Numbered from the stretch's first letter, positions 4,843 through 20,091 are shown. The stretch is DNA of 64,000 bases from an uncultured Ruminococcus sp. (GCA_964523835.1 CAZGAZ010000008.1:2792-66791), one strand, 5' to 3'. Notes: generated by a model not told the origin, from the letters alone. Numbers and translations are program-made.

Positions 4843-6225
4843 ATGCCTAATATGTCGCTTGTTAAAAATCCTATGCCCTCCCAGGAGGCAGGGGAAAGAA
4901 GAAGCAACTTTGGGGAGGTTGCTCTCGGTTATACCGCAGAAATGGCTGCGGACGAGGCTAAGAGATGTCTCGGGTGCAAGAATATGCCCTGTGTATCGGG
5001 ATGTCCCGTTAATATTGACATTCCCGGGTTTATTAAGAAAATCGCCGAGGGTGAGTTTGAAGAGGCTTACGGCGTTATTGCAAAGTCCAGCTCGCTGCCT
5101 GCGGTGTGCGGACGTGTCTGCCCTCAGGAGACCCAGTGCGAGGGTGTGTGCATAAGGGGCAAAAAAGGCGAGCCTGTGGCTATCGGCCGTCTGGAGAGAT
5201 TTGCTGCGGATTATCATAACAGTAATTTCACGGGGGCTGCCGAAAAGCCCGAGTCAAACGGGAAGAAAGTTGCGGTTATCGGTGCGGGTCCTGCTGGGCT
5301 TACCTGTGCGGGCGACCTTGCAAAGAAGGGCTATGAGGTAACGGTATTTGAGGCGCTGCACCTGGCGGGAGGCGTGCTGGTTTACGGAATCCCCGAATTC
5401 AGACTGCCCAAGAGCATTGTGCAGAAAGAAATTGACGGCTTGAAGGAAATCGGCGTTAAGGTCGAGACAAATATTATAGTGGGCAAGACTGTTACTGTGG
5501 ACGAGCTTTTTGAAGAGGGCTTCAAGGCAATATTTATCGGCTCGGGAGCGGGTCTGCCGAGATTTATGAATATCCCCGGGGAGAACCTTAAAGGCGTTTA
5601 TTCGGCTAACGAGTTCTTGACGAGAGTTAATCTGATGAAGGCTTACAAGCAGGGCAGCGACACTCCCGTTAAGGAGAACAAAAGGGTCGCTGTTGTGGGC
5701 GGCGGAAACGTTGCCATGGACGCTGCAAGATGTGCGCTGAGGCTGGGTGCGGAGGAAGTTTACATAGTATACCGCCGCAGCGAGAGCGAGCTGCCTGCGA
5801 GGGCGGAGGAAGTGGAGCACGCTAAGGAAGAGGGTATTGTTTTCAAAATGCTTACCAATCCCACGGAGATCCTGGGGGACGGAGAGCATTTTGTAAGCGG
5901 TATCAAGTGCGTTTCCATGGAGCTGGGCGAGCCCGATGAATCGGGACGGCGCAGGCCTATTGTGAAAGAGGGCAGCGAGCATATTATTGATGTGGACTGC
6001 GTAATTATGGCTATAGGCACATCTCCGAATCCTCTTATCAGAAACACCACGGAGGGATTGGAGACCAACAAACATGGCTGCATTGTGGTAAAGGACGACA
6101 GCGGACTTACCTCCCGTGAGGGCGTATATGCGGGCGGCGACGCTGTTACGGGTGCGGCTACGGTTATTCTTGCTATGGGTGCGGGCAAGTCTGCGGCACA
6201 GGCTATTGATGAATATTTAAGCTGA
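4843..6225 (+). CDS. nfnB: Nfn transhydrogenase large subunit (often annotated NADPH-dependent glutamate synthase homotetrameric, gltA)
   Basis: RCLGCKNMPCVSGCP and CGRVCPQETQCEG Fe-S motifs; GAGPAG and GGGNVAMD Rossmann motifs. Confidence 0.9.
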   Translation: MPNMSLVKNPMPSQEAGERRSNFGEVALGYTAEMAADEAKRCLGCKNMPCVSGCPVNIDIPGFIKKIAEGEFEEAYGVIAKSSSLPAVCGRVCPQETQCEGVCIRGKKGEPVAIGRLERFAADYHNSNFTGAAEKPESNGKKVAVIGAGPAGLTCAGDLAKKGYEVTVFEALHLAGGVLVYGIPEFRLPKSIVQKEIDGLKEIGVKVETNIIVGKTVTVDELFEEGFKAIFIGSGAGLPRFMNIPGENLKGVYSANEFLTRVNLMKAYKQGSDTPVKENKRVAVVGGGNVAMDAARCALRLGAEEVYIVYRRSESELPARAEEVEHAKEEGIVFKMLTNPTEILGDGEHFVSGIKCVSMELGEPDESGRRRPIVKEGSEHIIDVDCVIMAIGTSPNPLIRNTTEGLETNKHGCIVVKDDSGLTSREGVYAGGDAVTGAATVILAMGAGKSAAQAIDEYLS

Positions 6226-6393
6226 CAGGATAAAGAATTTCCGGAGGCAGGAGGCAAGTGTAAATTATTTTCTTGTCTCTTGCTTCCTGCTTCTGTTAGA
6301 AGTGAGCATGGTCGGTGATGATTTTGCCTGTGCTGTTCTTTTTGCGGTACAGGCTTTTTGACGTTTTTGACGTGAGATAAGGTGTGATGTTTT

Positions 6394-6696
6394 GTGGTCG
6401 GTTATGTTCTGGCTTTTTGGGGGATAACAGCAGTTGCGATAGAAGCTTCGTGGAATGTTTCAAAGATCGTCAAAACAGTTTCAAGCGGGAAAAGGGCTGA
6501 GGCTTCGGATTTTAAACGTGCGGCCGGAACTTTGGCAAGGTGGCTCGCTTTGTATTTATTGCTGCTGTTTTTGTTTATTTACATTATCAAGTCCAATTCA
6601 TGGAGGGCAGAGCCTGTTCATGTGTGGTGTATTGCTTTGATAATTTCGGGATTTGTAAGGCGATGTTGGCTTTGGGTTTATAGGATATATAAATGA
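6394..6696 (+). CDS. Hypothetical membrane protein
   Basis: GTG start after AAGGTG; about three hydrophobic segments; no recognised family. Confidence 0.55.
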   Translation: MVGYVLAFWGITAVAIEASWNVSKIVKTVSSGKRAEASDFKRAAGTLARWLALYLLLLFLFIYIIKSNSWRAEPVHVWCIALIISGFVRRCWLWVYRIYK

Positions 6697-6736
6697 CAGG
6701 GGTTATAATTCCGAACTTTTGAAAGGTGTGTCTGAT

Positions 6737-7615
6737 ATGAGTCCAATAAGAAATGCTTGTGATACGAATATTTATTATGAGGCTTACGGCAAGGGTGAAA
6801 CGGTGCTGTATCTGCAATCGGTGCTTGGAGGAATAAATCCCGGGGCATATTATTTTGCGGGGAGGATATCGAAAAAGCACAGGGTCATTATTTGGGACGG
6901 ACCTAACTGCGGGCAGTCGGGTGTGGTAATAAAGGACACTCAGAGCGAATATCATCTTGCCTGTGAATATATAAAGGGGCTTCTTGATGAGCTGGGGGAA
7001 AAGAGCGTGCATATAGCGGGCTGCTCGGGGGGCGGCGAAATGGGGCTTTTGTTTGCGGGACTTTATCCCGACAGGGTAAAAAGTCTTGCCATGTACCGTC
7101 CTACGGACACAAGCTGCGAAATTGAACGGGCGATCGTGGAGGCAAGATATTATGACCTTGCCCGTGCGGCGGATATTTCCATGGAAAATGCGGTAAAATA
7201 TTCGGAAAACCCTTCAGAGGGGAGATTTAAAAATGTTTCACGGTGGCTGGCGGAGCTGTGCCGCAGGGACAGTGAAAAGATACTTGGAATAAACGGCAGT
7301 GATTTTGCACGGATAATGCGCAGGTGGGGAGACCAAATGAGTTCACCTGATTTTTACAGGGGTCATATGAGCGATGAAGAGCTTGGAAAAATAAATATCC
7401 CTGTGCTTATATGCACCTGTCCTGACGACTATCATCCCCAAAGGCTGGGAGACGATCTGCACAGGGCTTTGCCGGGTTCAATGCTTGTAAGTGCGGGAGA
7501 ATACCGCAGGGAAAATGAGATATACAATGAAGCGGAGGACGAAAATCTTTTCGGCGGATTTACGGGATTTATTGACTGTTATGAGGATTTTATCAATGAA
7601 AAGGCAAGCCGATAA
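6737..7615 (+). CDS. Alpha/beta hydrolase
   Basis: GxSxG nucleophile elbow (HIAGCSGGG), WDGPNCGQS motif, late D-x-x-H (DDYHP); start moved to ATG after AAGGTG. Confidence 0.85.
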   Translation: MSPIRNACDTNIYYEAYGKGETVLYLQSVLGGINPGAYYFAGRISKKHRVIIWDGPNCGQSGVVIKDTQSEYHLACEYIKGLLDELGEKSVHIAGCSGGGEMGLLFAGLYPDRVKSLAMYRPTDTSCEIERAIVEARYYDLARAADISMENAVKYSENPSEGRFKNVSRWLAELCRRDSEKILGINGSDFARIMRRWGDQMSSPDFYRGHMSDEELGKINIPVLICTCPDDYHPQRLGDDLHRALPGSMLVSAGEYRRENEIYNEAEDENLFGGFTGFIDCYEDFINEKASR

Positions 7616-7629
7616 AAGGAGCATTTGCA

Positions 7630-8382
7630 ATGAAAACACCCGAAATTATATTTTTTGATATAGGGCACACCCTTACATATTCCCCCGAAAAATGCAAGGA
7701 AAACGGCTTTGCCGCTTTATGGGAGCACAGGTCGGGGAACTGCGGCTGCACATATGAAGAACTGCTCGGGCGGGCGGAAAAAATTTTCCGTGATGTGGAT
7801 ATTGTGGCGGATTCCTTTGATTATGACATTCCCTTTGCTGCCTCTTTAAAGCTGCTTTTTGACAGTGCGGGGGTGGTGCTTGATATACCGCCGCAGGATC
7901 GGGAAAGGGTTTTTCTGAATACCGCACGGCCTGCCGTCCCCATGCCGGGGGCGGTAGAGATGATAAGCTTTTTGCGGCAGCAGAAAATAAGACGGGCGGT
8001 CATTACCAACAACCGCTTTTCCGAGGAGGCTTTGCTGCGGCAGCTGTGCGGCATTTTCGGGGAGGGTGCGTTTGAGTTTGTGATATCCTCGGCGGATTAT
8101 ATGGTGCGAAAGCCCGACAAGAGGCTGTTTGAGGCGGCGCTGCACAGGGCGGGAGTTTCTCCCGGGGCTGCGTGGCACTGCGGCGATATGGCAAATGCAG
8201 ATGTTATGGGGGCGCATTATATGGGTATTTTCCCGGTGCTTTATGAAACGAATGAGGTGGATAATCCATTTCTGCGGTTCAACAAGGGTTTTGAGGCGGA
8301 TTTCCCCTTTGAGAGGATTTCCTGCTGGAAAGAACTGTGTCAATTAATAATTAATAATGAGCGGGGCGGGTGGATTTGCTGA
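7630..8382 (+). CDS. HAD-superfamily hydrolase
   Basis: FFDIGHTL motif I, ITNN motif II, RKPD motif III, HCGDMANADVMGA motif IV. Confidence 0.9.
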   Translation: MKTPEIIFFDIGHTLTYSPEKCKENGFAALWEHRSGNCGCTYEELLGRAEKIFRDVDIVADSFDYDIPFAASLKLLFDSAGVVLDIPPQDRERVFLNTARPAVPMPGAVEMISFLRQQKIRRAVITNNRFSEEALLRQLCGIFGEGAFEFVISSADYMVRKPDKRLFEAALHRAGVSPGAAWHCGDMANADVMGAHYMGIFPVLYETNEVDNPFLRFNKGFEADFPFERISCWKELCQLIINNERGGWIC

Positions 8383-8514
8383 ACGGTAAATTAAAATGCG
8401 AAAATGCTTTAGATAAATTTTCGGTTTACAGGAAAGGTAAAAAATCAAGATATGTCAATCATTATTAATTATTAACTATTAATTATTAATTAATTTTTGT
8501 GAGGTGTTTTTACA

Positions 8515-9843
8515 ATGAGAGAATACAAGACCCAGATGGAGGCGGCAAGAAAGGGGATAATCACTCCTGAAATGGAAAAGGTGGCAGAGAAAGAATACAG
8601 ATCTCCCGAGGAAATTCGTGAAAAGGTAGGCAGGGGAGTTGTTGCCATTCCTGCAAATGTGAACCACAAATCCCTTTCGCCCGAGGGTATAGGCGAGGGG
8701 CTGCGGACGAAGATAAATGTTAATTTAGGCGTATCGGGGGACTGTCGGGACTATGACAGGGAAATGGAAAAGGTGCGGCTTTCGCTGAAATACGGGGCGG
8801 AGTCTATTATGGATCTGAGCAACTGCGGCAAGACGAATATGTTCAGGCAAAAGCTTATTGAAATGTCCCCCGCTATGATAGGCACTGTGCCCATGTATGA
8901 CGCTATAGGATATCTGGAAAAGGATCTGCCCGAGATAACCGCAGAGGATTTTCTTAAGGTGGTAAAGGCGCACGCCGAGGAGGGTGTGGACTTTATGACA
9001 ATTCATGCAGGGATAAACAGACGTGCGGTGGAGGCTTTCAGGCGGCAGGGGAGGAAGATGAATATTGTTTCCAGAGGGGGTTCGCTGCTGTTTGCATGGA
9101 TGGAGATGACGGGGAATGAAAACCCCTTTTACGAGCATTATGACGAGGTGCTGGAGATACTGCGTGAATATGATGTGACGATAAGCCTTGGGGACGCTTT
9201 GCGCCCCGGGTGCATTTCCGACGCCACGGACGCAGGGCAGACAGCTGAGCTTATCGAGCTTGGAAACCTGACGAAACGGGCTTGGGAAAAGGACGTTCAG
9301 GTAATGGTGGAGGGGCCGGGGCATATGGCTATGAATGAGATTGCCGCAAATATGACCCTTCAGAAGCGGCTTTGTTACAATGCGCCTTTTTATGTACTGG
9401 GACCGCTTGTTACCGATATTTTCCCGGGGTATGACCACATAACGAGCGCTATAGGCGGAGCTGTTGCGGCGGCAAACGGGGCGGATTTTCTCTGCTACGT
9501 TACCCCTGCGGAGCATTTGCGTTTGCCCGATATTTCCGACGTTAAGGAGGGGATAATGGCAAGCAAGATTGCGGCTCATGCGGCGGATATTGCAAAGGGT
9601 GTGCCCCATGCCCGTGAAAAGGACGACGAGATGGCGGCTGCCCGTCATGCGGTGGACTGGGAGCGTATGTTTGAGATTGCCGCAGACGGGGAAAAGGCAA
9701 GGGAATATTTTGAAAGCACCCCTCCTGCCGACCGTCACACCTGCTCTATGTGCGGAAAAATGTGCGCTGTGCGGACTACCAATATGATCCTGGAGGGGAA
9801 AGAGGTCAGGCTTTGCGGCGAGGCGGGAAAAAGCGAGAAGTGA
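8515..9843 (+). CDS. thiC: Phosphomethylpyrimidine synthase
   Basis: [37 protein letters not shown] Fe-S motif. Confidence 0.97.
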
Positions 9844-9965
9844 TTTTTGCGGTATGCCGTATGCCGATATGCTTGGGCGATTTTGACGGATTTATGTTTG
9901 ACGGATTTGAACGCCGAAGCTGAAAATATAGGAATTGCGATGTGCAAATGAAATCGAGGGTAAAA

Positions 9966-10598
9966 ATGAATGAGAATATAACTCTTTACGGGATAACAGG
10001 GAATTGCCCGCTGCCTTTGGAAACGGCTGTGGAGGCGGCTTTGCGAGGGGGAGTGGGAATGGTGCAGCTGCGGGAGAAAAATATAAGTGATGAGGAATAT
10101 GTGCGCAAGGCAAAAATGCTTCTGAGCGTCACGGGAAAATACAATGTTCCGCTGATAATCAACGACAGCGTGAAAGTTGCCCTTAAATCGGAGGCGCAGG
10201 GGGTACATCTGGGGCAGACGGACGGCAGTCCCTTGGAGGCAAGGAAAATTTTAGGGGAAAATGCCGTTATCGGCGTTACCGCAAAGACTGTGGAAATGGC
10301 TGTAAAGGCGGAAAGGGACGGTGCGGATTATCTGGGCTGCGGGGCGGTTTTCGGGTCGGTTACTAAGGAAAACGCTGTGCCTATGAAAATGGAAACGCTA
10401 AGGGATATTTGCGCTGCGGTAAGCATTCCCGTGTATGCTATCGGGGGGATAGACACCTCGAATGCAGGGCTTCTGAAAGGCACGGGCATTCGGGGAATTG
10501 CTGTAGTTTCGGCGATATTCGGAAAAAGTTCCTTTGAAGATATAAAGGCGGCGGCAGGTCTGCTGAAGAAAATATCCCTTGAAATTTCGGGGGATTGA
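9966..10598 (+). CDS. thiE: Thiamine phosphate synthase
   Basis: VQLREK, LIIND, GVHLGQTD, ADYLGCGAVFGSVTK, AIGGI; start at ATG after GAGGG. Confidence 0.95.
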   Translation: MNENITLYGITGNCPLPLETAVEAALRGGVGMVQLREKNISDEEYVRKAKMLLSVTGKYNVPLIINDSVKVALKSEAQGVHLGQTDGSPLEARKILGENAVIGVTAKTVEMAVKAERDGADYLGCGAVFGSVTKENAVPMKMETLRDICAAVSIPVYAIGGIDTSNAGLLKGTGIRGIAVVSAIFGKSSFEDIKAAAGLLKKISLEISGD

Positions 10599-10630
10599 AA
10601 AGCAAGTGCGCTATGCAAGAGGAAGATGAT

Positions 10631-11449
10631 ATGAAAGAAAACGTTAAACCGATACTGTCGGTGGCAGGGTCGGATTCTGTCGGCGGGGCGGGGATTCAGG
10701 CGGATATAAAGACGGTTTCCGCTTTGGGGCATTATGCCATGACGATCGTTACTGCCGTGACGGCGCAGAATACGCTGGGAGTTCGGCTTTGGGAGGCGGT
10801 TTCCCCCGGGATGATGAAGGCGCAGTTGGAGGCGGTTTTTGAGGATATCCCTCCGGCGAGCGTTAAGATAGGAATGGTGGGGAATGGGCAGAATGCGTCG
10901 ATAATTGCCGATGAGCTTGTTTTGTATAATGCAAAAAATATTGTCTGCGACCCGGTGCTCTCGGCGACAAGCGGGGACGGGCTGACGGGAGATGAGGGCA
11001 TAAAGGTTTTGACCGAGCGGATATTTCCCATTGCGGATATAATTACACCGAATATTCCCGAGGCGGAGCGGATTTGCAATATGCAAATCGGGAGCGTGTC
11101 CGATATGGAAAGGGCGGCGGAGAGGCTGTCGGCTGTTACCTCGGGGGCGGTGCTTATAAAAGGGGGACATTTGTGCGGCGAGGGGGCAATGGCTGTAGAA
11201 ACAGCGGCTTCGGAGGCTGTTGATATCCTGCTTTATGAGGGGGAATTTTACAGGTTTACATCTCTGCGTATCAATAATCCCAACACTCACGGCACGGGCT
11301 GCACGCTTTCTTCTGCCATTGCCTGCGGGCTGGCGGAGGGGAAAGATATTCCCGAGGCGGTGCGGTATGCAAAGGATTATGTTACGAGGATCATTGGCAA
11401 TAACTTTGACATAGGGCATGGGAGAGGCTCAATGTGGCATTTTGACTAA
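10631..11449 (+). CDS. thiD: Hydroxymethylpyrimidine/phosphomethylpyrimidine kinase
   Basis: AGSDSVGGAGIQADIKT, TAQNT, ITPNIPEAE, HGTGCTLSSA. Confidence 0.96.
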   Translation: MKENVKPILSVAGSDSVGGAGIQADIKTVSALGHYAMTIVTAVTAQNTLGVRLWEAVSPGMMKAQLEAVFEDIPPASVKIGMVGNGQNASIIADELVLYNAKNIVCDPVLSATSGDGLTGDEGIKVLTERIFPIADIITPNIPEAERICNMQIGSVSDMERAAERLSAVTSGAVLIKGGHLCGEGAMAVETAASEAVDILLYEGEFYRFTSLRINNPNTHGTGCTLSSAIACGLAEGKDIPEAVRYAKDYVTRIIGNNFDIGHGRGSMWHFD

Positions 11450-11597
11450 AATATGAAATGCCCGATTGTGTATTCCCACAAACTTTACACGCAAACGAAA
11501 CATTTTAAGGGTTTGATTTGTTTATTATTCAGTGAGATCATGTGTCCGTAATGCAAAAACATGACGACCCTAATAATAAAATTCGGGAGTGTATAAA

Positions 11598-12662
11598 ATG
11601 AAAAAACACATCATGACTGCCGCTTACTCCGCAGCGCACTTTTTTGTGGACCTGGCTTGTGCATTTTTAATATTCCGCTCGGTTTATGACGGGCGGGGAG
11701 AGCTTTTGCTCTACTATAATTTCTGCGCCTTTGCCCTGCAAATGCCCATAGGAGTGCTGCTGGACAGGTTCGGCAAGGGGCATCTGGCGGCGGCGCTCGG
11801 CTGTCTGCTTATAGGGACGGCGTTTCCGCTGTCAATGTTACAGGGGTCAAATTTAGCAGCTGCGGTGGTTTTGGGTGTGGGAAATTCTCTGTTCCATTTA
11901 GGGGGCGGGGTGTATGTGCTGGACGAGTATGAGAAGTCGGGGGCGCTGGGGGTGTTCGTTTCCCCGGGGGCGATAGGTCTTTATCTGGGGACGGTATGGG
12001 GCAAAGGGACGGAGTTTTCGACTACGGCGGTCATGGCGGTTATGATTGTATGGGCGGCGGTTTTCCTGCTGCTGCCGAGGGTACTGCGGTTTGAAAATCC
12101 TTTTGGGGCTGCGGCGGAAGTGCATGAAAATGTGTCCGATAAAATGACGTCGGCGACGATGTCGCCAATGCTTATCTTGGCGTCGGGAATGTTTACGGCG
12201 GTGGTCGTTATCCGCAGCTTCGGGGGATTTGCGGTAAGTCTGCCTTGGAAAACGGCGGGGGCGGCGGCTTTGGCGGCGGTGTTTGCCACGGCTTCGGGCA
12301 AGGCTGCGGGGGGATATTTATCGGACATTTTCGGGAAAAAGCCTGCCTCGGCGGTCTCCATGGGGGCGGCGGCGCTGCTGTACATATTTTCGGGGAATAT
12401 GCTGCCCGGGCTGCTTGCGGTGTTCCTTTTCAATATGACCATGCCCATAACTCTGAGGGCGGCGGCGGATATTATGAAAGGAAACAGGGGTTTTTCCTTC
12501 GGACTGCTTACATTCGGGCTGTTTCTCGGGTATATTCCCATGTATCTGAACGGGGGACTGAGGATAAGCGGCGGGGTTATGGCGGCGCTTTGCGTTTTGT
12601 CGGGGGCACTGCTGTTCGGGGGCTGGAAATTAATGGATAATGAAGTAAAAAAAGGTGAATGA
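11598..12662 (+). CDS. MFS-like multi-pass membrane protein
   Basis: About 11-12 hydrophobic segments; G-x-L-x-D-R/I-F-G motif in both halves (GVLLDRFG, GYLSDIFG); start at ATG after GGGAG. Confidence 0.75.
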   Translation: MKKHIMTAAYSAAHFFVDLACAFLIFRSVYDGRGELLLYYNFCAFALQMPIGVLLDRFGKGHLAAALGCLLIGTAFPLSMLQGSNLAAAVVLGVGNSLFHLGGGVYVLDEYEKSGALGVFVSPGAIGLYLGTVWGKGTEFSTTAVMAVMIVWAAVFLLLPRVLRFENPFGAAAEVHENVSDKMTSATMSPMLILASGMFTAVVVIRSFGGFAVSLPWKTAGAAALAAVFATASGKAAGGYLSDIFGKKPASAVSMGAAALLYIFSGNMLPGLLAVFLFNMTMPITLRAAADIMKGNRGFSFGLLTFGLFLGYIPMYLNGGLRISGGVMAALCVLSGALLFGGWKLMDNEVKKGE

Positions 12663-12711
12663 CGGCAAGTGTTTTATATTCACGCTGAAAAGATTTTTAA
12701 GGGGGACTGAA

Positions 12712-13050
12712 ATGACTGTAAGAATAATCGCTGCTATGGGAATTTCCTTGGGGCTGACAATTTTGCTGGAGCTGTTGTTTGCTTTTTTTGCGGGCGTCCG
12801 TGGGAACGGGCTGAAGGTGAACGTTCTTTGCAATATCCTTACAAATCCGCTTGTTACAAGCATTTACTATTTCTGCAAATACGGGCTTATGCTGCAGGTT
12901 GGGGTTATGACAATAATTACCGCAGCGCTGGAAATTGCCGCTGTGATAACCGAATGGCGGGTGTATAAGGTCTGTACGGATATTAAAAAACCGCTGCTCT
13001 TTTCCATAGGCGCTAACTGTTTTTCATATTTTATAGGCTTGCTTCTTTAG
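12712..13050 (+). CDS. Small 4-TM membrane protein with intramembrane polar residues (LTxxxE, NxLTNP, ExxxxxxE, ANxxS)
   Basis: ORF track 12655..13050; better RBS (AGGGGGA) before ATG 12712; four hydrophobic helices. Confidence 0.8.
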   Translation: MTVRIIAAMGISLGLTILLELLFAFFAGVRGNGLKVNVLCNILTNPLVTSIYYFCKYGLMLQVGVMTIITAALEIAAVITEWRVYKVCTDIKKPLLFSIGANCFSYFIGLLL

Positions 13051-13101
13051 AAGCAACTTCTTCTGGAAGCAACTGTTGTAAGCAGTGAAAGGAGAGATCA
13101 T

Positions 13102-13260
13102 ATGGAACATATCGGAAAGCTTTATGATTTGGTCTATGAACCGCCCGTTATAAACGTCAATTCCACAGAGCTGCCCGGGTGGGCTATGCCTGCGCTTATA
13201 GCTTGCGGTGTTGTTATCGCAGCGGCGGTGATTGTGAAGATTATAAAGGGAAAAAAGTGA
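13102..13260 (+). CDS. 52-aa single-TM microprotein (MEHIGKLYDLVYEPP...LPGWAMPALIACGVVIAAAVIVKIIKGKK)
   Basis: Translated by hand; GGAGAG RBS, ATG, TGA; TM segment followed by Lys tail; absent from the ORF track (<60 aa). Confidence 0.75.
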   Translation: MEHIGKLYDLVYEPPVINVNSTELPGWAMPALIACGVVIAAAVIVKIIKGKK

Positions 13261-13273
13261 AAGGGGAAGTTAA

Positions 13274-13429
13274 ATGAATGACCTTATGTATGTGATATTT
13301 GCAGACGGGGTCGCTGACCCGTTTTCATATGCCGTTTACGAGTTCGAGGAGTTTCTGCCCGTTATACTGCTTATTGCGGCTGTGATAGTTGTTACGGTCA
13401 TAATAATAAAAAAGAGTAAAAAGAAATAG
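13274..13429 (+). CDS. 51-aa single-TM microprotein (MNDLMYVIFADGVADPF...FLPVILLIAAVIVVTVIIIKKSKKK)
   Basis: Translated by hand; AAGGGG RBS 7 nt upstream; paralog of the next ORF. Confidence 0.8.
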   Translation: MNDLMYVIFADGVADPFSYAVYEFEEFLPVILLIAAVIVVTVIIIKKSKKK

Positions 13430-13448
13430 GGTGAGGGGGGAAAATCAA

Positions 13449-13595
13449 GTGAACTGTGTGATATTTGCGGACGTGGTTTTTGACCCGTTTAAAATTGCGG
13501 TTTACGAGATAAGGCATAAGCTGCCTTTGATACTGCTTATTGCGACTGTGATAATCGTCACGGTCATAACAATAAAAAAGAATAAAAAGAAATGA
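13449..13595 (+). CDS. 48-aa single-TM microprotein (MNCVIFADVVFDPF...KLPLILLIATVIIVTVITIKKNKKK)
   Basis: Translated by hand; GTG start after GAGGGGGG; nucleotide paralog of 13274..13429 with the frame preserved. Confidence 0.75.
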   Translation: MNCVIFADVVFDPFKIAVYEIRHKLPLILLIATVIIVTVITIKKNKKK

Positions 13596-13605
13596 GGAAT
13601 CTATC

Positions 13606-14484
13606 ATGAAAAGAAAAAGAATTTTAACAGTAATTTCGGCGATACTGGCTTGCTGCACGGTGGCAGCGGCAGGAACAACGGTGTGGGCGGACGACGATGA
13701 TGTACTGACGCCCCCTCAGGACAGCTTTTACGAGCTTTACGAAAGCCAGTGCGAGCTTCACGATTACAGAAGCTTCAGGGCTGCGGTTGATTTCGATGTA
13801 TTTGCAAGTCCCATTGACCAGAGAAGCGTAAGGCGTGTAGGCGTGGGAGAGGTCATTTCCACCAATGTTTCCTATACCGCCCCTGACGGCGTTATCTGGA
13901 GCTATGCTTATTCGGAAACAGGTATTGGCGGCTGGTTCAGAATGGAAAATGTCTCCCTTGTTTACGACAGTATTGCATTCACCGAGGAACATCAGAACGA
14001 GCTTACTCCCTATGCGGGGCAGCTGGACGGCTTTTCGCCTACGGCATATCTTTATCTGTGGACATATCCCGGTTCGGGAGAGGCGGAGAATATCTGCCGT
14101 GCGGGTGATGAATGGTTCACCAACGGAGATGTTCAGAATCTGGGCGAGCGTGCGGCTTATGTTTACAGGGACGCCGGCGGCAGCGAATGGGTTTATCTTG
14201 ATTTCCTGCCGAGCGGCTGGGTATATGTTCCGAATCCCGAGGCAGATCTGCGCAGCGGCGTTCCTGCGGTCAATGTGAATAATAATACAAACAATGACGA
14301 GGAACTGGGGGACACTTTATTTGAAGATGTTGAGGCGGGTGCTGCAATTGTCGGCGTATCGGCTGCCGATGTATCGGCAAGTTCATCGGCAAATGATTAT
14401 ACACTGCCGCTGGGGCTTTCTGCCGTTCTTGCGGCGGGGATTACGGCTGCAAAGAAAATCAAAAAAGAGAGGACGAATGAATGA
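13606..14484 (+). CDS. Secreted, C-terminally membrane-anchored protein, paralog 1 (YD.I.F.EEH / WTYPGSGE family)
   Basis: Sec signal peptide ending VWA; C-terminal LP-hydrophobic-KKIKK tail; shares blocks with the next two ORFs. Confidence 0.85.
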   Translation: MKRKRILTVISAILACCTVAAAGTTVWADDDDVLTPPQDSFYELYESQCELHDYRSFRAAVDFDVFASPIDQRSVRRVGVGEVISTNVSYTAPDGVIWSYAYSETGIGGWFRMENVSLVYDSIAFTEEHQNELTPYAGQLDGFSPTAYLYLWTYPGSGEAENICRAGDEWFTNGDVQNLGERAAYVYRDAGGSEWVYLDFLPSGWVYVPNPEADLRSGVPAVNVNNNTNNDEELGDTLFEDVEAGAAIVGVSAADVSASSSANDYTLPLGLSAVLAAGITAAKKIKKERTNE

Positions 14485-15356
14485 AAATGAAAAGGACAGC
14501 ATTGTTAAAGCTTATGACGGGAATATTGGTTTCCTGTACAGTCATGCTTTGCGGGACAAGTGTGTTTGCAGACATCATTGCGGCTCCTCCGCACAACACG
14601 AGATTTTACGAGCTTTATCATGATGAATGCGAGCATGAAAATCGTGAAAGAGGTTACAGTGCTCTGACGGATTTTAACACATATATGAGCCCCCTCAGCG
14701 ATCAGGTCGTTCGGCATATTAATAAAGGGGACGTTCTGCATTCCAATACCTTTTACACCGACAGCGAGGGAGTGCGCTGGGCTTATGATTACAACTGGGA
14801 CTGGGATGACGTTACAAAAGCCGGCTGGTACAAAACGGAAAATGCCATACTTATTTATGACAGTATTTCCTTTGAGGAGGAGCATAGGGACGAGTTTGTG
14901 TATAACAAAGGTCAGCTGAATGATTATACTCCCGAAAAACAAGTGGTTTTCTGGACATATCCCGGTTCGGGAGAAATTGATTTTATCGTTTCCAAGGAAG
15001 AATGGATACCCAAAAAAGGTTATGTCGACATAACGGATAAAACCTATGCCGATGAGAATGGAGATGAATGGCTGTATATCGCACGGGGTTTCCGCAGCTG
15101 GGTAAATCTCTCCGACATTGAGGGAGAGAATGCAGCCGAAATGCAGGGCGAAAGGATATACGTTACCACCGAGGCTATTGAAGAGGCTTACGAACCGGCT
15201 TTAGCCGTCTCGAATATTCCCATTTCCGACAGAGATGAAAAGTCGGATTTCCTGCTGCCGATCATTCTCGCCCTGTGCGCTGCCGCAGCTGCGGGAGGCT
15301 TCCTTCTCGGTATCATGGCTGAAAAGAAAAATAAGAAAGCGAGGACGAATGAATGA
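14481..15356 (+). CDS. Secreted, C-terminally membrane-anchored protein, paralog 2
   Basis: Signal peptide ending VFA-DIIAAPP; DSEGVRWAYDY, YDSISFEEEH, WTYPGSGE; DFLLP-TM-KKNKK tail; ATGA overlap with upstream gene. Confidence 0.87.
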   Translation: MKMKRTALLKLMTGILVSCTVMLCGTSVFADIIAAPPHNTRFYELYHDECEHENRERGYSALTDFNTYMSPLSDQVVRHINKGDVLHSNTFYTDSEGVRWAYDYNWDWDDVTKAGWYKTENAILIYDSISFEEEHRDEFVYNKGQLNDYTPEKQVVFWTYPGSGEIDFIVSKEEWIPKKGYVDITDKTYADENGDEWLYIARGFRSWVNLSDIEGENAAEMQGERIYVTTEAIEEAYEPALAVSNIPISDRDEKSDFLLPIILALCAAAAAGGFLLGIMAEKKNKKARTNE

Positions 15357-16237
15357 AAATGAAAAGGACAGCATTGTTAAAACTTATCACGGGAATATTG
15401 GTTTCCTGTACGGTTCTGCTTGGCGGGACAAGAGTGTTTGCGGACGTTATCGTTGAGCCTTGGGGAGAAAGCGCTGATTTTTACGTGCAGCACATCAGTG
15501 AATGCGAGCTTGAATATTTTGGGAGAAATTACAGTGCGCTGAAGGATTTTGACATATTGACCAGTCCGCTCGGCGAGACCGTGCGGCACGTACAAAAGGG
15601 CGATGTTCTGTATTCCAATGTCATTTACACCGACAGCGAGGGGGTGCGCTGGGCTTATGACTACAACGGTGAAGATACGGAAAAAGCCGGTTGGTTCAAA
15701 ATGAAAGATGTTGAGCTTGTTTACGACCGTATTTCTTTTGAGGAGGAACATAAGAGCGAGTTTGACGAATATAAAGGTCAGCTGAATGATTATGTGCCCC
15801 AAAATTATGTTATTCTTTGGACATATCCGGGTTCGGGAGAGATAAAAGAGGTATGTCCCCGGGAAACATGGTTTATCGATGGTTATGTGTTTACATTAGA
15901 TGAAACGGCAATGTACACTTATTTTGATGAAAGCGGAATTGAATGGGTGTATCTGGGCTATGGCTTCTATGGCTGGGTCGATCTCTCCGACATTGAGGGC
16001 GAGGCGTACACCGAAGAAGCCGCCGAAACGACTATGTCCGAGGACAGCAGGGTATACGTTACCACCGAGGACATTCAGGAGGCTTCCGAAATGGTCTTAG
16101 CTATCTCGGATATCCCCGAGCCGCCCGCTCCCGACGGGAAAGACAAGCCGGATTTCCTGCTGCCGATAGTTCTCGCCCTGTGCGCTGCCGCTGCTGCGGG
16201 AGGATTCCTTGTGGGAACTAAACGGAAAAAGCCGTAA
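15353..16237 (+). CDS. Secreted, C-terminally membrane-anchored protein, paralog 3
   Basis: Signal peptide ending VFA-DVIVEP; same conserved blocks; DFLLP-TM-KRKKP tail; ATGA overlap. Confidence 0.87.
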   Translation: MKMKRTALLKLITGILVSCTVLLGGTRVFADVIVEPWGESADFYVQHISECELEYFGRNYSALKDFDILTSPLGETVRHVQKGDVLYSNVIYTDSEGVRWAYDYNGEDTEKAGWFKMKDVELVYDRISFEEEHKSEFDEYKGQLNDYVPQNYVILWTYPGSGEIKEVCPRETWFIDGYVFTLDETAMYTYFDESGIEWVYLGYGFYGWVDLSDIEGEAYTEEAAETTMSEDSRVYVTTEDIQEASEMVLAISDIPEPPAPDGKDKPDFLLPIVLALCAAAAAGGFLVGTKRKKP

Positions 16238-16241
16238 AAAT

Positions 16242-16273
16242 ATTCCCCGCCCGAAAAAGGACGGGGAATTTTT
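16242..16273. terminator. Probable bidirectional intrinsic terminator
   Basis: ATTCCCCG...CGGGGAAT hairpin with A/T runs on both sides, between convergent genes. Confidence 0.7.
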
Positions 16274-16328
16274 AAAATCAAGCTCCGAATAATAAAAGGT
16301 GTGTATTCCTGCCTCTTGCTTCCTGCCT

Positions 16329-18110
16329 CTATTCCACATTGATCTTTGGCGGCTGCTTTATAATGTGCTCACGGGGGAGCTTTATGCGTATGGTAGTCCC
16401 CGTGCCCTCTTTGCTCTGCACGCTCATACCGTATTCGTCGCCGTAATAAAGCCGTATTCTTTTGTGGACATTGGTAAGGCCTATGCTCTTTCCCGAGGAG
16501 GTGTCGCTTATTTCAAGCTTTCTTTCCAGCTCACGGAGCTTTTCCGGAGTCATACCGCTTCCGTTGTCCCGCACGTCCACAAACACAAATTCGCCGCTGT
16601 AATATGCCTTTATGTCTATCCTGCCGTTTGCCTTGCTGCTTTCGATACCGTGAACAAAGGCGTTCTCCACTATGGGCTGTATCAGCAGGGGGAGTATGAG
16701 CCAGTCCTTGTTTATTTCCGAGTAAATGTTATAGGAGACCCTGTCGCCGAACCTTGCCGCCTGAAGCTCCAGATAGCTGCTTGTAAATTCCAGTTCCGAA
16801 CGGAGCGTTACCTCCGTGTCCTTGAATTCCAGACACCGCCGCATAAATTTACCAAGTTTTTTAACCAGTCCCGCAGTTTCCCTGTCATTGTTGCAGTAGG
16901 CTTTCATTCGTATTGTCTCAAGGGTGTTGTACAGAAAATGGGGATTTATCTGACTGGCAAGGGCTTTGAATTCCGCCTCCATCTGGTTGAATTTGAATGC
17001 CTCTCTCTCCAGCCTTGCACGGTAGCTTTCCTTGATAAGCCGCTGCATATCCCCGATCATCTGCCTCATATCCGAATACAGATCGGAAATTTCATCATTG
17101 CCGTTATCGGTGATATCCACATCGAAATTTCCCTTTGCCACCAGGTGCATTTTATTGCTCAGCAGCCGTATTCTTCTGGAAAACATACTTGTGAAAAGAA
17201 TGATTATCAGCATGGACAGAATTATCATCAGCGCACAGTATCCCCCGTAAACCACCGTCAGTCGGTTAAGGTCGGAATTAACGTAGGAATCGGGCAGCAG
17301 CAGAACTATCTGAAAGCTGTTTCCCGAATAGAAATTGTTCAGAACACTGTAGCCCTTTGTACCGAAAAAGCCCAGATCGTAGGTTTTCTGAATGCTGGAG
17401 GTCATAAAATCGCTGATCGGATTTATGATGTCGCCGGGAACAACGCCTTCGCAGCTGCTGTAATAAACAGTGCCCTTATCCACCGAAAGCACAGTGCGTA
17501 CAGGCTCGTTAGGAGTTATTCTGCTTATCCACACGTCCGAGATAAGAGCGCAGGCGACCCCTGTCACCCTTGAATTATAAGTCACCGCTTTACAGCAGGC
17601 AAGGTAATAATTCCCGTCCCCGGGGTATTCTATCACATCCCAGAATGTTGCGGACGGAGACCCTGCCGCCGCCTTGTACCAGCGGGTGTTTTTTATGTCG
17701 CTGTCCGCATACAGAAAGCCCGAGCCGAAAATAAAATCCTTTTGGGGCACGAATACCAGCATATTTTTTATCTGCGGTGAGGGGGAGGCATAGGATGAAA
17801 GGGAAAAATCGCTGTAAAAGCTGTAATATTCCTCCCTGTCCTCATGGGAGACCGCAAGGAAATCCTTTACTGTCTTATCCCCCGCAAGCTCATTCAGCGA
17901 CATTTCCGTCGATCCTATAAAGTCGGTGATACGGTATTTTACACTGTCCGCATCATTCATGGCCGAATCCAGCGCTGCGTCCTTGACAGTGGCACGCATA
18001 TTTACCAGAAGAAAAATGCTTGCTGCAAACATAGGCAGTATTACCACCAGGAACATTGCAATCATCTGATTGCGTATAGAGGATTTGCGTATATTGGTAA
18101 TTATTTTCAT
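16329..18110 (-). CDS. Sensor histidine kinase, HAMP + His_kinase (YesM-like)
   Basis: Two TM segments, HAMP, ALASQINPHFLYNTLE, LQPIVENAFVHG, DNGSGM, IGLTNVHKRI; start placed at MKIITN. Confidence 0.93.
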   Translation of the reverse strand: MKIITNIRKSSIRNQMIAMFLVVILPMFAASIFLLVNMRATVKDAALDSAMNDADSVKYRITDFIGSTEMSLNELAGDKTVKDFLAVSHEDREEYYSFYSDFSLSSYASPSPQIKNMLVFVPQKDFIFGSGFLYADSDIKNTRWYKAAAGSPSATFWDVIEYPGDGNYYLACCKAVTYNSRVTGVACALISDVWISRITPNEPVRTVLSVDKGTVYYSSCEGVVPGDIINPISDFMTSSIQKTYDLGFFGTKGYSVLNNFYSGNSFQIVLLLPDSYVNSDLNRLTVVYGGYCALMIILSMLIIILFTSMFSRRIRLLSNKMHLVAKGNFDVDITDNGNDEISDLYSDMRQMIGDMQRLIKESYRARLEREAFKFNQMEAEFKALASQINPHFLYNTLETIRMKAYCNNDRETAGLVKKLGKFMRRCLEFKDTEVTLRSELEFTSSYLELQAARFGDRVSYNIYSEINKDWLILPLLIQPIVENAFVHGIESSKANGRIDIKAYYSGEFVFVDVRDNGSGMTPEKLRELERKLEISDTSSGKSIGLTNVHKRIRLYYGDEYGMSVQSKEGTGTTIRIKLPREHIIKQPPKINVE

Positions 18111-18373
18111 TTTTGGGGGCAAACCCCTTTCAAAAGGCAGGAAATCCGGGTGCAAAAAGCGGAAATTTGCTGCCCTGTCTGTTTTTTTACATTATATCAT
18201 ATTTCTTATGTTTTTTCAAGTGTTTTTATCTGTCGGGGAAGATTTTTCGGATTGTTTGCGCTGTTCACAGTTCATTGCAAAAAATTTTACATTAAGTTAT
18301 TGCCTTTTTTTATTGATTTGACGTTAATTTAATTAGAGCAGAGCAGAAAATAAATTTAAGGGAGGAATGAATT

Positions 18374-18931
18374 ATGGAGGACAGCGGGATAATTGAGCTT
18401 TTTTTCGCACGTTCGGAACAGGCGATCACAGCGCTTGCGGATAAATACGGGAAATTCTGCTTTAAGATCGCTATGAACATACTGTCGGACAAGGAGGATT
18501 CGGAAGAATGCGTGAACGATACCTATTTCAGGGTATGGAACGCAGTTCCCCCTGACAAGCCCGCCGCCCTGGGGGGATATGTGGGCAGGATAACCCGCAA
18601 TCTTGCCGTAAGCCTTTACCGCACAAAGCACAGGCAAAAAAGGGGAGGGGGCACAGCGGAGCTTGTCCTTGGAGAACTGGAAGAGGTCATCGGAGGCTCT
18701 GGCAGAACGGACAATGAGGCGGAAGAAAGGGAGCTTACCGCCGCAGTCAATGCCTTTCTGGAGACCCGGGAGAAAAATGCACGTATAATATTTTTAATGC
18801 GGTATTTTGCCCTTTATCCCATTGACGAGATCGCTCGGAAAACGGGACAAACTGCGGGTAAAATAAAGTACAGCCTGAAAAAGACCCGCAGGGACTTAAA
18901 AAATTTTCTTGAAAGGGAGGAGCTTATATGA
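18374..18931 (+). CDS. ECF RNA polymerase sigma factor
   Basis: DSEECVNDTYFRVW region 2, RITRNLA, region 4 HTH (EIARKTG...IKYSL); GGAGG RBS. Confidence 0.9.
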   Translation: MEDSGIIELFFARSEQAITALADKYGKFCFKIAMNILSDKEDSEECVNDTYFRVWNAVPPDKPAALGGYVGRITRNLAVSLYRTKHRQKRGGGTAELVLGELEEVIGGSGRTDNEAEERELTAAVNAFLETREKNARIIFLMRYFALYPIDEIARKTGQTAGKIKYSLKKTRRDLKNFLEREELI

Positions 18932-20091
18932 ACTCTTTAAAGCTGTTTGAATGTATAGGAAATATTGACGAGGAGTACATTGCCGAGCTGGAAAAGGCAG
19001 TAATCGTACCCGTCCCCAAAAGTCCGCAGCACAATTATGCAAAGTATGCCCCATGGCTTGGCGCAGCAGCGGCTTGTCTTGTATGCGCCGTTATAGGCAT
19101 GCATTTTCTCCCCACGAAAGACGTCGTCATCGAAGATTTAGTTATAGCCCCCACGGAAGAAACCGTCACCGAAACCACCTCGCCTCTTACGCCCTCGGAG
19201 TCCGATATATCGCAGCTGCCGGGAGTGAACGGAGTGCCTGTGACGCAGGGAACGCCCGATGTTACAGGCACTGCCGTGACCGCCTCGCCCCTTACGTCGG
19301 CAGTGCCGGATACATTGGAGCCTCCGTCAGCGGTCGTAGTGCCCGTAACACCCGAAACGCCTGCAACATCCGTGATACCCGTAACAACGGCAGCACCCGT
19401 ACCCCCGAAAACCCCGCCCGAGCCATACCATATCCCCGAGGGGGGCGGCGGAGACGAAATGTCGGCTTTTAACGACCCCGTTCGGTTCATATTGCTGGGC
19501 ATTGACGGGAGGCTTTGCGGCGACAGAGACGTGGACGGCTGGTTCAAGGCAAAGAGAGAGGCGAACCCCATTCCCGACGACTTGTCGGGTCATGCCAATC
19601 TGTATTCCTTTATCCATGACTTCGGCATACCCCGTGAAGAGGCGGAGGCGGCAATGGAATATTATATAAATTCCGACGACCCGCAGCTTAGGTTTCCCAC
19701 GGAAATTTTCGATCTCATCTATTCGGAGAACACAGCGGAGCTGGGCAGGCTTTATGCCAATGCCCATACCATAGCCAAGGGCGAAAAGCTTTATACCCCC
19801 AAGTGGCTTTATTACCACACTCCCGGGGAATGGACAGCGGCAGGCATAACCCCCGATGACGTGGAAAGCCGCCTTCACCAATATGAAAACATACCCTTTT
19901 CCCCCGAGGGCAGGGAATATTTCGGGGAACTTATATCGGAATTTCTGGGGCGGCAGGTCTTGCTCGCCGATCCTTACGCCGATTGGGAGGATAAGCCTTT
20001 GCCCGTTGCGGAAGCCATTCCCGAGGATATCCCGGAGGACGTTTACGAGGAACCTATTGAGGAGATAGAGGAAACCGATATATACCCCTGA
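18928..20091 (+). CDS. Probable anti-sigma factor (N-terminal cytoplasmic domain, TM, Pro/Thr linker, extracellular domain)
   Basis: ATGA overlap with the ECF gene; LFECIGNIDEEYI N-terminus; one TM segment; long P/T/V-rich linker. Confidence 0.75.
   Translation: MNSLKLFECIGNIDEEYIAELEKAVIVPVPKSPQHNYAKYAPWLGAAAACLVCAVIGMHFLPTKDVVIEDLVIAPTEETVTETTSPLTPSESDISQLPGVNGVPVTQGTPDVTGTAVTASPLTSAVPDTLEPPSAVVVPVTPETPATSVIPVTTAAPVPPKTPPEPYHIPEGGGGDEMSAFNDPVRFILLGIDGRLCGDRDVDGWFKAKREANPIPDDLSGHANLYSFIHDFGIPREEAEAAMEYYINSDDPQLRFPTEIFDLIYSENTAELGRLYANAHTIAKGEKLYTPKWLYYHTPGEWTAAGITPDDVESRLHQYENIPFSPEGREYFGELISEFLGRQVLLADPYADWEDKPLPVAEAIPEDIPEDVYEEPIEEIEETDIYP

Follow-up and report, generated by a model that had tools for sequence, protein, structure and literature searches.

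The window analysed here is a 64,000-nt stretch of one strand from an uncultured Ruminococcus sp. (GCA_964523835.1, CAZGAZ010000008.1:2792-66791). Within it, positions 11598-16237 hold a cluster of co-oriented genes (Table 1) that encodes a protein of the major facilitator superfamily (MFS), a small protein with four transmembrane helices (the 4-TM protein), three microproteins of about 50 aa (mA, mB and mC) and three large paralogs of about 290 aa (L1, L2 and L3). A first-pass annotation of the window had reported this arrangement, together with the terminator that closes it, and we find it in the sequence as described. Adjacent genes of the cluster are separated by 10-51 nt or overlap by 4 nt, and each is preceded by a purine-rich ribosome-binding site, that of mC being GAGGGGGG, 8 nt upstream of the gene. 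The G+C-rich hairpin that follows L3 (minimum free energy -17.2 kcal/mol, z -2.4) lies between an A-run and a U-run and is therefore a bidirectional terminator, ending both the cluster and the histidine kinase gene that converges on it. An N-terminal motif, A↓D-V/I-x-x-E/D-P (the arrow marks the boundary before the motif Asp), is common to all six small and large proteins, as is a C-terminal helix followed by a basic tail. How these motif proteins relate to the two membrane proteins encoded beside them is the subject of this analysis.

Table 1. Genes and other features of the cluster and of its flanks, in positions of the window.
Feature	Position	Strand	Description
MFS gene	11598-12662	+	354 aa; alternative GTG start at 11589
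4-TM gene	12712-13050	+	112 aa
mA	13102-13260	+	microprotein, 52 aa; MEHIGKLY-DLVYEPP, then ELPGW, helix, KGKK
mB	13274-13429	+	microprotein, 51 aa; MNDLMYVIFA-DGVADPF, then helix, KKSKKK
mC	13449-13595	+	microprotein, 48 aa, GTG start; MNCVIFA-DVVFDPF, then helix, KKNKKK
L1	13606-14484	+	292 aa; signal peptide, VWA↓DDDDVLTPP, two SH3b-like barrels, linker, helix, KKIKKERTNE
L2	14481-15356	+	291 aa; signal peptide, VFA↓DIIAAPP, two SH3b-like barrels, helix, basic tail
L3	15353-16237	+	294 aa; signal peptide, VFA↓DVIVEP, two SH3b-like barrels, helix, KRKKP
Bidirectional intrinsic terminator	16242-16274	none	hairpin 16242-16269, AUUCCCCGCCC...GGACGGGGAAU, A-run upstream, UUUUU downstream
thiC	8515-9843	+	directly upstream of the module; Pfam label from related contigs
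thiE	9942-10598	+	Pfam label from related contigs
thiD	10595-11449	+	Pfam label from related contigs
dCache/HAMP histidine kinase	16329-18155	-	convergent, downstream of the module
ECF-type sigma factor	18374-18931		downstream of the histidine kinase
Putative anti-sigma protein	18928-20091		387 aa, Pro/Thr-rich; after the sigma factor

The MFS protein stays below the cut-off of Pfam MFS_1 (31.5 bits against 33.4, E 1e-7), and its profile has no match among PDB sequences at E ≤ 0.01. An AlphaFold 2 (AF2) model built from 90 sequences, with a predicted local distance difference test score (pLDDT) of 95 and a predicted template-modelling score (pTM) of 0.92, shows twelve helices arranged 6+6 about a central loop (163-189), i.e. 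the two six-helix bundles of the MFS fold. Every one of the 253 Foldseek matches of this model in the PDB at E ≤ 1e-3 is an MFS protein; the top ones are VMAT1/2, FucP, VAChT, FLVCR2 and NorA (E ~1e-8, TM-score 0.65-0.73), and MHAS2168 is also among the matches. As modelled, the protein is a canonical 12-TM MFS transporter of a very divergent subfamily. Motif A, PxGxLADRxNRN, follows the second transmembrane helix (TM2) and is repeated as GKxxGGxxxDxxG at 234-246 after TM8, both being kept in alignments A2 and A4, and TM5 carries a motif-C-like FVSPGAxG. Motif C of DHA-type MFS proteins is typical of H+ antiporters, and in these features the protein looks like a DHA-type H+ antiporter. Across 85 MFS sequences, the most divergent included, H14, Q48, N96, H100, R206, W217 and T285 are invariant and D18 is changed only once, to E. 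R206 is placed at the outer end of TM7, and W217 lies with the near-invariant K218 in an outer loop. The invariant residues argue for one fixed substrate or ion site.

The 4-TM protein has no match in Pfam, NCBIfam, PADLOC, PHROGs or the PDB sequences, and a deep HMMER search with its profile collected 4241 cluster representatives (50% identity) at E ≤ 1e-3. T16, E20, T44, N45, E74, E81, N102, S105 and G109 are invariant in the family. Lys and Arg residues are concentrated in loop 1 (2.6 on average) and loop 3 (3.4), the termini and loop 2 having 0.3-0.6, and from this distribution an N-out/C-out topology is predicted. With that topology the polar cluster is in the membrane half that faces the cytoplasm, and the motif is at the outer face. 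In many loci the 4-TM gene has a 4-nt overlap with the MFS gene, and its translation is often coupled to that of the MFS gene. Membership in the SMR (EmrE-like) family was considered and rejected, as hhalign of the 4-TM profile against E. coli EmrE gave a probability of 0.13% and Pfam Multi_Drug_Res was not matched. One match of the deep search, P0187 (164 aa), joins the first two MFS helices (…YNFCAFALQMPLG) straight to the 4-TM protein, which may be a deletion fusion or an assembly artefact.

The cluster is one copy of an unannotated three-part module that is common among gut Clostridia. Word-based searches returned 9 relatives for L3, 7 for the 4-TM protein and more than 2550 for the MFS protein. 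All the MFS relatives at 40-60% identity were found in the same setting, that is an MFS gene, an overlapping 4-TM gene of ~115 aa and then one or more motif proteins, which in these contexts start with a signal peptide and the sequence A↓DV(I/L)xEPxxDFY, continue with an ectodomain and end in a helix with a basic tail. A scan with the MFS alignment matched more than 565 species genomes, those of Clostridia from gut and rumen; 80 further loci were drawn from these matches, and our module counts rest on 86 non-redundant loci (single loci are cited by number, L001 and onwards). The hosts are Oscillospiraceae, Ruminococcus, Lachnospiraceae, Christensenellales and the cultured Lactonifactor longoviformis DSM 17459 (L072); another cultured carrier is Oscillospiraceae 38-13 (L076). 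Searched by hidden Markov model (HMM), the 4-TM gene adjoins the MFS gene in 84 of the 86 loci, and the 4-TM/large cluster is present in 83, the remaining three being truncated contigs. Complete loci all hold at least one motif protein, and the apparent exceptions carry small motif proteins, some of them located between the two membrane-protein genes or ahead of the MFS gene (the latter in L055 and L060).

The same association is seen in an even sample of 399 genomes from the class Clostridia, where the MFS gene is patchily distributed over 9 families (12 genomes, 3%) and strong matches to the large family are confined to MFS-positive genomes. Seven MFS-positive genomes have no large match; five of their loci, one per MFS type, were inspected and all five showed a 4-TM-like gene beside the MFS gene (one below the reach of the HMM) and a short motif protein or a short SH3-like partner. 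By these types, all 12 MFS-positive genomes are counted as having the 4-TM gene and a motif protein beside the MFS gene. Homologs of the two membrane proteins and motif proteins thus strictly co-occur, in the loci as in the genome sample, and the motif is conserved family-wide beyond the source genome, so that two of the refutation criteria set by the first-pass annotation, applied here, did not refute its idea. Moreover, the adjacency persists despite changes of gene order and protein identities of ~20%. The motif proteins come in two sizes, large ones with an ectodomain and short ones without it, hereafter minis. Among 82 informative loci, 46 have large proteins only, 18 have large proteins and minis, and 13, plus 2 more (~15), have minis only; exactly one large partner is present in 54. 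The mini-only state has at least 8 origins on the MFS tree, and this recurrence indicates that the ectodomain is dispensable and that the constant part is the peptide with its anchor.

No other gene follows the module in this way. Clustering of neighbours by BLAST recovered only ThiD/ThiE, in one clade, and scattered ABC ATPases, and a Pfam tally of 68 upstream genes gave no recurrent partner, the upstream neighbours being heterogeneous. Scans of all components, distant members included, against Pfam, NCBIfam, PADLOC and PHROGs returned only the weak MFS_1 match, and we found no description in the literature of the 4-TM protein, of the motif proteins or of a module made of an MFS protein and microproteins. 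Genes of lipoprotein maturation also occur near some modules, those of L103 and L104 among them: Lgt (PF01790) and an ICMT-like methyltransferase are encoded near the L104 module, and Lit (PF07314) lies upstream of the module in two loci (2 of the 68 upstream genes); coincidence is probable in these cases.

What is conserved in the motif proteins? The motif Asp is present in 100% of 73 large and 32 mini proteins and is followed at +1 and +2 by V then I/L/V in the large proteins and V then I/V in the minis; the search pattern partly determined these three positions. It left +4 and +5 free, so that their conservation is independent evidence: +5 is P in 86% of the large and 81% of the mini proteins, and +4 is E in 71% of the large proteins and E or G in the minis. 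Upstream of the Asp, position -1 is A in 93% of the large and 84% of the mini proteins, and -3 is A or V in the large proteins (89%) and A, V or I in the minis. In the large proteins, where the Asp has a median position of 27, the motif continues with N/D-D-F-Y and then H. Among the 480 open reading frames (ORFs) of at least 35 aa in the window, the N-terminal motif occurs in 7 and the C-terminal helix with basic tail in 14; the two are found together in 5, all in the cluster, against 0.2 expected by chance, with a search pattern that did not cover L1. Furthermore, a filter for the motif, a short mature part, a helix and a basic tail recovered 30 minis in 28 loci, all within modules, and the motif with a C-terminal anchor gave no true match outside modules in ~900 kb of six-frame sequence. 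mC was recovered by the motif and TM filter.

The first-pass annotation had placed this acidic-proline motif directly after a leader in all six proteins. The motifs are all there, but the nature of the leader differs. In L1-L3 the leader is a normal Sec signal peptide with the end V-F/W-A↓D, and the large proteins have by sequence the small -1 and -3 residues of signal peptidase I sites, whereas the microproteins of the window lack an h-region and have only 6-10 residues before the Asp, too few for a signal peptide. Both forms of mini are met elsewhere, a signal-peptide type of 60-90 aa, present in three tandem copies in L037, and a leaderless type of ~45-55 aa to which the window microproteins belong. 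A leaderless subfamily, M-x(5-9)-A-D-V-V/I-F-x-P-F ... helix-RRKK, includes mB and is found also in the distant loci L039, L044, L059 and L036. In L024 (6783-7025), from a metagenome-assembled genome (MAG) labelled Coriobacteriales, an 80-aa mini carries the motif twice in tandem (DIVIEPRPSADIVIEPSP).

The microproteins have orthologs in related loci. Those of mA were found in L001, L005 and L003, the L003 ortholog (69 aa) having a full signal peptide that ends VFA↓DVVVEPF, and those of mB in L001, L005 and L006; mC is a paralog of mB and 83% identical to the mB of L001. Their dN/dS ratios (0.15-0.23 for mA and 0.3-0.45 for mB, compared with ~0.2 for the 4-TM and L1 genes) indicate that they are real, constrained genes under purifying selection. 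In all, the genome encodes seven motif proteins, namely the three microproteins and three large proteins of the cluster and a fourth large paralog on another contig. The latter (G000 contig C72:8611-9468, L094 1438-2358) has a signal peptide ending VSA↓DVIIEPENDFYQEH and terminates in LPLILAA-helix-KKRGK; it lies away from any MFS or 4-TM gene, directly downstream of a lipoprotein-like gene.

The large proteins form one family. L2 matches the large-family HMM with an E of 5.9e-75, L1 and L2 are both included in the large-family alignments A1 and A3, and L1 has orthologs in L001, L003, L005 and L006. Modelled by AF2 from 71 sequences, L3 reaches a pLDDT of 85.5 overall and one above 90 for ectodomain residues 41-215, which form two small beta-barrels. 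The best, though weak, Foldseek matches of this model are the N-terminal SH3b domain of NlpC/P60 proteins, the lysostaphin SH3b domain and the wall-binding domain of SlpA. A 482-aa family member in L049 (8182-9630), with a signal peptide and the variant motif YA↓DAIMGNEF, ends in SLH domains (Pfam E 2e-17) and not in a helix with a basic tail. The SH3b-like barrels and the SLH ending of the L049 protein both point to the cell wall, and the ectodomain may bind the wall, the two barrels probably holding the complex to it. In L013 (1424-2299), from a Ruminococcus MAG, the large gene is split into three ORFs (44, 90 and 98 aa), which makes a pseudogene or an assembly error likely; in the near-identical L014 the gene is intact.

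The relation between the motif and the 4-TM protein is seen also in three independent gene fusions, each confirmed within a module beside an MFS gene. In P0222 (L056), the 4-TM protein is fused to a large protein without signal peptide, TM4 running into ...LTLFPQTAAA↓DLIWTPSDDFY. In P0169 (L104) it is fused to a mini, TM4 running into ...TPVIALA↓DVISYERYF-helix-RNRKK. In P0231 (L103) the order is inverted, and a signal peptide, FA↓DVMAVPPP and ~25 residues lead straight into TM1 of the 4-TM protein, so that the mini has no helix of its own. These fusions place both ends of the 4-TM protein outside, on the same side as the motif, and show that the motif works directly beside the 4-TM protein. 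They also show that TM4 can substitute for a signal peptide, and that the partner's own helix and basic tail are only an anchor, which is replaced by TM1 of the 4-TM protein in P0231 and by SLH domains in L049.

We propose, with a probability of about 0.5, that the motif proteins are interchangeable third subunits of an MFS/4-TM transporter complex. Its core would be formed by the compact 12-TM MFS protein and the N-out/C-out 4-TM protein, and the third component would be a single-pass protein, N-terminus outside and C-terminus inside, whose outer end reads D-V/I-I/V-x-E-P. This peptide would be exposed by signal peptidase I after A-x-A, or lies 4-13 residues past the initiator Met, and may dock on the outer face of the core, where its Asp and Glu may pair with the outward-facing R206 and K218 of the MFS protein. 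The helix with its Lys/Arg tail would act as a common stop-transfer anchor and so retain the peptide at the membrane; the microproteins would supply the peptide and the anchor only, and the large paralogs would add the two SH3b-like barrels. Physical docking, the contact residues, the direction of transport and wall binding are what we infer in this scheme, whose shown parts are the folds, the topology, the co-occurrence of the three families, the conserved motif, the fusions and an anchor that can be dispensed with. As a rule a locus has just one motif protein, which in some cases is fused to the 4-TM protein; this fits a subunit better than a cargo.

Several observations weigh against this proposal. 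The invariant Glu/Asn/Thr/Ser cluster of the 4-TM protein looks enzyme-like or ion-binding, and the subunit model leaves it unexplained. Seven partners for one core in the same genome would equally suit a substrate model. The small residues at -1 and -3 are kept even in leaderless and fused forms, and cleavage at A↓D by something besides or instead of signal peptidase I is therefore possible. The SH3b matches of L3 are weak (E ~1e-2, probability up to 1.0, target TM-score ~0.6), and Pfam SH3_3 reaches only 18.9 bits against a cut-off of 27 in the short partner of L097 and does not match L1-L3. Finally, no covariation was detected between the motif and residues of the MFS or 4-TM proteins, a comparison that is uninformative because the core residues are invariant.

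The proposed complex has parallels among known transporters. In MCT1-basigin/embigin and in MFSD1-GLMP (PMC11252000), a secondary transporter also has a small, single-pass, non-transporter partner, and in bacteria AcrZ (with AcrB), MgtS and KdpF are transporter-binding microproteins; partners of microprotein size are found in the module as with AcrZ. Unlike these systems, to which it has no sequence relation, the module has an obligatory 4-TM subunit and a partner defined by an extracytoplasmic N-terminal peptide, with several paralogous partners of 45-350 aa per core and wall-binding-like domains in some. Rv1410/MHAS2168-LprG likewise pairs an MFS exporter with a membrane-tethered extracytoplasmic protein encoded with it, but LprG is a lipoprotein with a lipid-binding pocket, and that system has no 4-TM subunit, N-terminal peptide motif or microproteins.

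Of the alternatives, the one that survives best, though we consider it unlikely, is that the MFS/4-TM pair acts on the motif proteins, by processing or translocating their N-terminus. D-V-I-x-E-P would then be a new N-terminal recognition signal, and the pair might cut at A↓D without signal peptidase I, link something covalently to the N-terminal peptide or carry leaderless N-tails over the membrane. The retention of A-x-A↓D, the polar cluster of the 4-TM protein and the presence of seven motif proteins for one core keep such a reading alive. If it were true, a previously unknown processing or translocation pathway would exist in Gram-positive anaerobes, with the microproteins as its minimal substrates or carriers.

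The first form of this idea, close to what the first-pass annotation had put forward, is a sorting or processing system in which the 4-TM protein, the MFS protein or both would cut at A↓D, modify the peptide at the N-terminus or process the helix at the other end, leading to display, release or covalent anchoring. We regard it as rather improbable. Sortase, PEP-CTERM/PGF-CTERM and GlyGly-CTERM systems do share with the cluster of the source genome a motif, a helix and a basic C-terminus, and adjacent dedicated membrane proteins. The strict co-occurrence of the families and the conserved motif speak for a sorting system, as do the A-x-A↓D kept in leaderless minis and in 4-TM fusions without signal peptide, the invariant intramembrane Glu, Asn, Thr and Ser of the 4-TM protein and the seven motif proteins of the genome, one of them unlinked; mB and mC even give sub-threshold matches to NCBIfam Loki-CTERM (16 bits against a cut-off of 19.9, E 0.01). 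However, in sortase, exosortase and rhombosortase systems the signature is C-terminal, whereas that of the module is N-terminal; the tail of its motif proteins is replaceable, SLH domains or the first helix (TM1) of the 4-TM protein taking over, and is absent in one fusion.

Moreover, the LP that precedes the helix, taken by the first-pass annotation as part of a shared LP, helix and Lys-rich tail, is indeed present in all six cluster proteins but occurs near the helix start in only 30 of 69 large homologs (43%) and is a lineage-local trait. The tails (ELPGW, FLPVI, KLPLI, TLPLG, LLPII and LLPIV) contain no LPXTG and no Sortase domain is encoded at the cluster, as had been noted before, and neither the sortase/LPXTG nor the exosortase-type hallmarks are found there. 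No sortase, exosortase, archaeosortase or rhombosortase model matches either membrane protein, and the four sortase genes of the genome are clustered elsewhere (contig C10:16177-20847). The 4-TM polar cluster lies on the side of the membrane opposite the motif, the MFS protein is a canonical transporter, and most loci would have one 'substrate', sometimes fused to its 'enzyme'. The tie between motif proteins and the two membrane proteins is thus strongly supported, by the 84/86 adjacency and by the fusions, and the sorting mechanism attached to it is not supported, the tail being replaceable and the LP variable.

In the second form, to which we give slim odds, the MFS/4-TM pair would recognise D-V-I-x-E-P and move the acidic N-tail of leaderless minis across the membrane, the partner helix leaving laterally like the amphipathic substrates of lipid-flipping MFS proteins, or would export a peptide derived from the motif proteins. 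Leaderless minis recur in many lineages and their N-tails must reach the outside, the MFS protein has antiporter/exporter-like features, and the motif is always at or near the extreme N-terminus. Yet a dedicated translocase would be superfluous for most partners, which have ordinary Sec signal peptides, and in the fusions of the 4-TM protein to a downstream motif TM4 already puts the motif outside. The leaderless minis resemble Pf3 coat-type YidC substrates, with an acidic N-tail, one helix, a basic C-tail and the same predicted topology, and differ from them in being chromosomal, part of a transporter module and orthologous to signal-peptide versions. No dedicated system is required by Pf3-coat-like proteins, whose short acidic N-tails are inserted by way of YidC.

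A third possibility, for which the chances appear just as small, is nutrient uptake or salvage in the manner of the TRAP (DctPQM) or TTT (TctABC) transporters. Tethered ectodomains would capture a ligand and pass it to the MFS/4-TM permease, the minis being regulatory or a scaffold. Candidate ligands are a precursor of thiamine (in this clade) or, in view of the SH3b-like domains, a fragment of peptidoglycan. These systems and the module do have in common a three-part layout, in which a large subunit of 12 TM helices and a small one of four go with an extracytoplasmic protein and subunits are now and then fused. But the large subunit is the elevator-type DctM or TctA there and has the MFS fold here, and the third part is a Venus-flytrap binding protein there, whereas that of the module has another ectodomain fold, is membrane-tethered and shrinks to a 45-aa peptide with its anchor. 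No component matches the DctQ, DctM, DctP or TctA/B/C families of Pfam and NCBIfam.

The thiamine link comes from the genomic context. In the window the module lies directly downstream of thiC-thiE-thiD, and the 139 nt that separate thiD from the MFS gene contain no predicted terminator; ThiD is adjacent to the module in 12 of the 86 loci and ThiE in 11, all of them in one MFS clade plus L010. In L010 the module is beside a cytX-thiM-thiE-thiD operon, and a thiamine pyrophosphate (TPP) riboswitch drives this convergent operon and not the module. There is no TPP riboswitch in the window at the gathering threshold, nor in positions 6000-13300 at E ≤ 1, which is unusual for a thiC operon, and upstream of the module neither a riboswitch nor another known RNA element was seen, be it in the window or at the 11 further loci examined. 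As the linkage is confined to one clade and L010, two independent lineages, a thiamine-related substrate is only a weak lead. Uptake is further disfavoured by the ~15 loci without any ectodomain, and by the invariant MFS core, which implies a single substrate across very different genomic contexts. On the other flank, the histidine kinase, sigma factor and anti-sigma neighbours (the sigma factor being of the extracytoplasmic function, ECF, type) recur in L001 and not in L003.

That there is no functional coupling at all is highly improbable: the motif would be a signal-peptidase site plus the first strand of a lineage-specific ectodomain, the anchors generic and the synteny inherited, which suits an A-x-A↓D typical of signal peptidase I sites and a generic type-I anchor with Lys/Arg (the large-protein profile matches only APP-like helices in the PDB), but the minis retain the motif without an ectodomain, the adjacency survives rearrangement and deep divergence, three fusions join the motif to the 4-TM protein and the large family is found only in MFS-positive genomes.

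In conclusion, our analysis favours an MFS/4-TM transporter complex with exchangeable motif subunits. Two of its three components, though common, lack a family model, a solved relative and a name. Gene callers tend to overlook the conserved microproteins (45-55 aa) of the D-V-I-x-E-P family, and the N-terminal motif is a simple annotation signature for these proteins; the fusions are ready-made constructs for structural work. If the proposal is true, the module would be a bacterial MFS transporter dependent on two further subunits, the 4-TM protein and a single-pass protein that can be exchanged. Such an architecture would be new to the largest of the transporter superfamilies, and the module would lend itself naturally to studying how microproteins are fitted into transporters.

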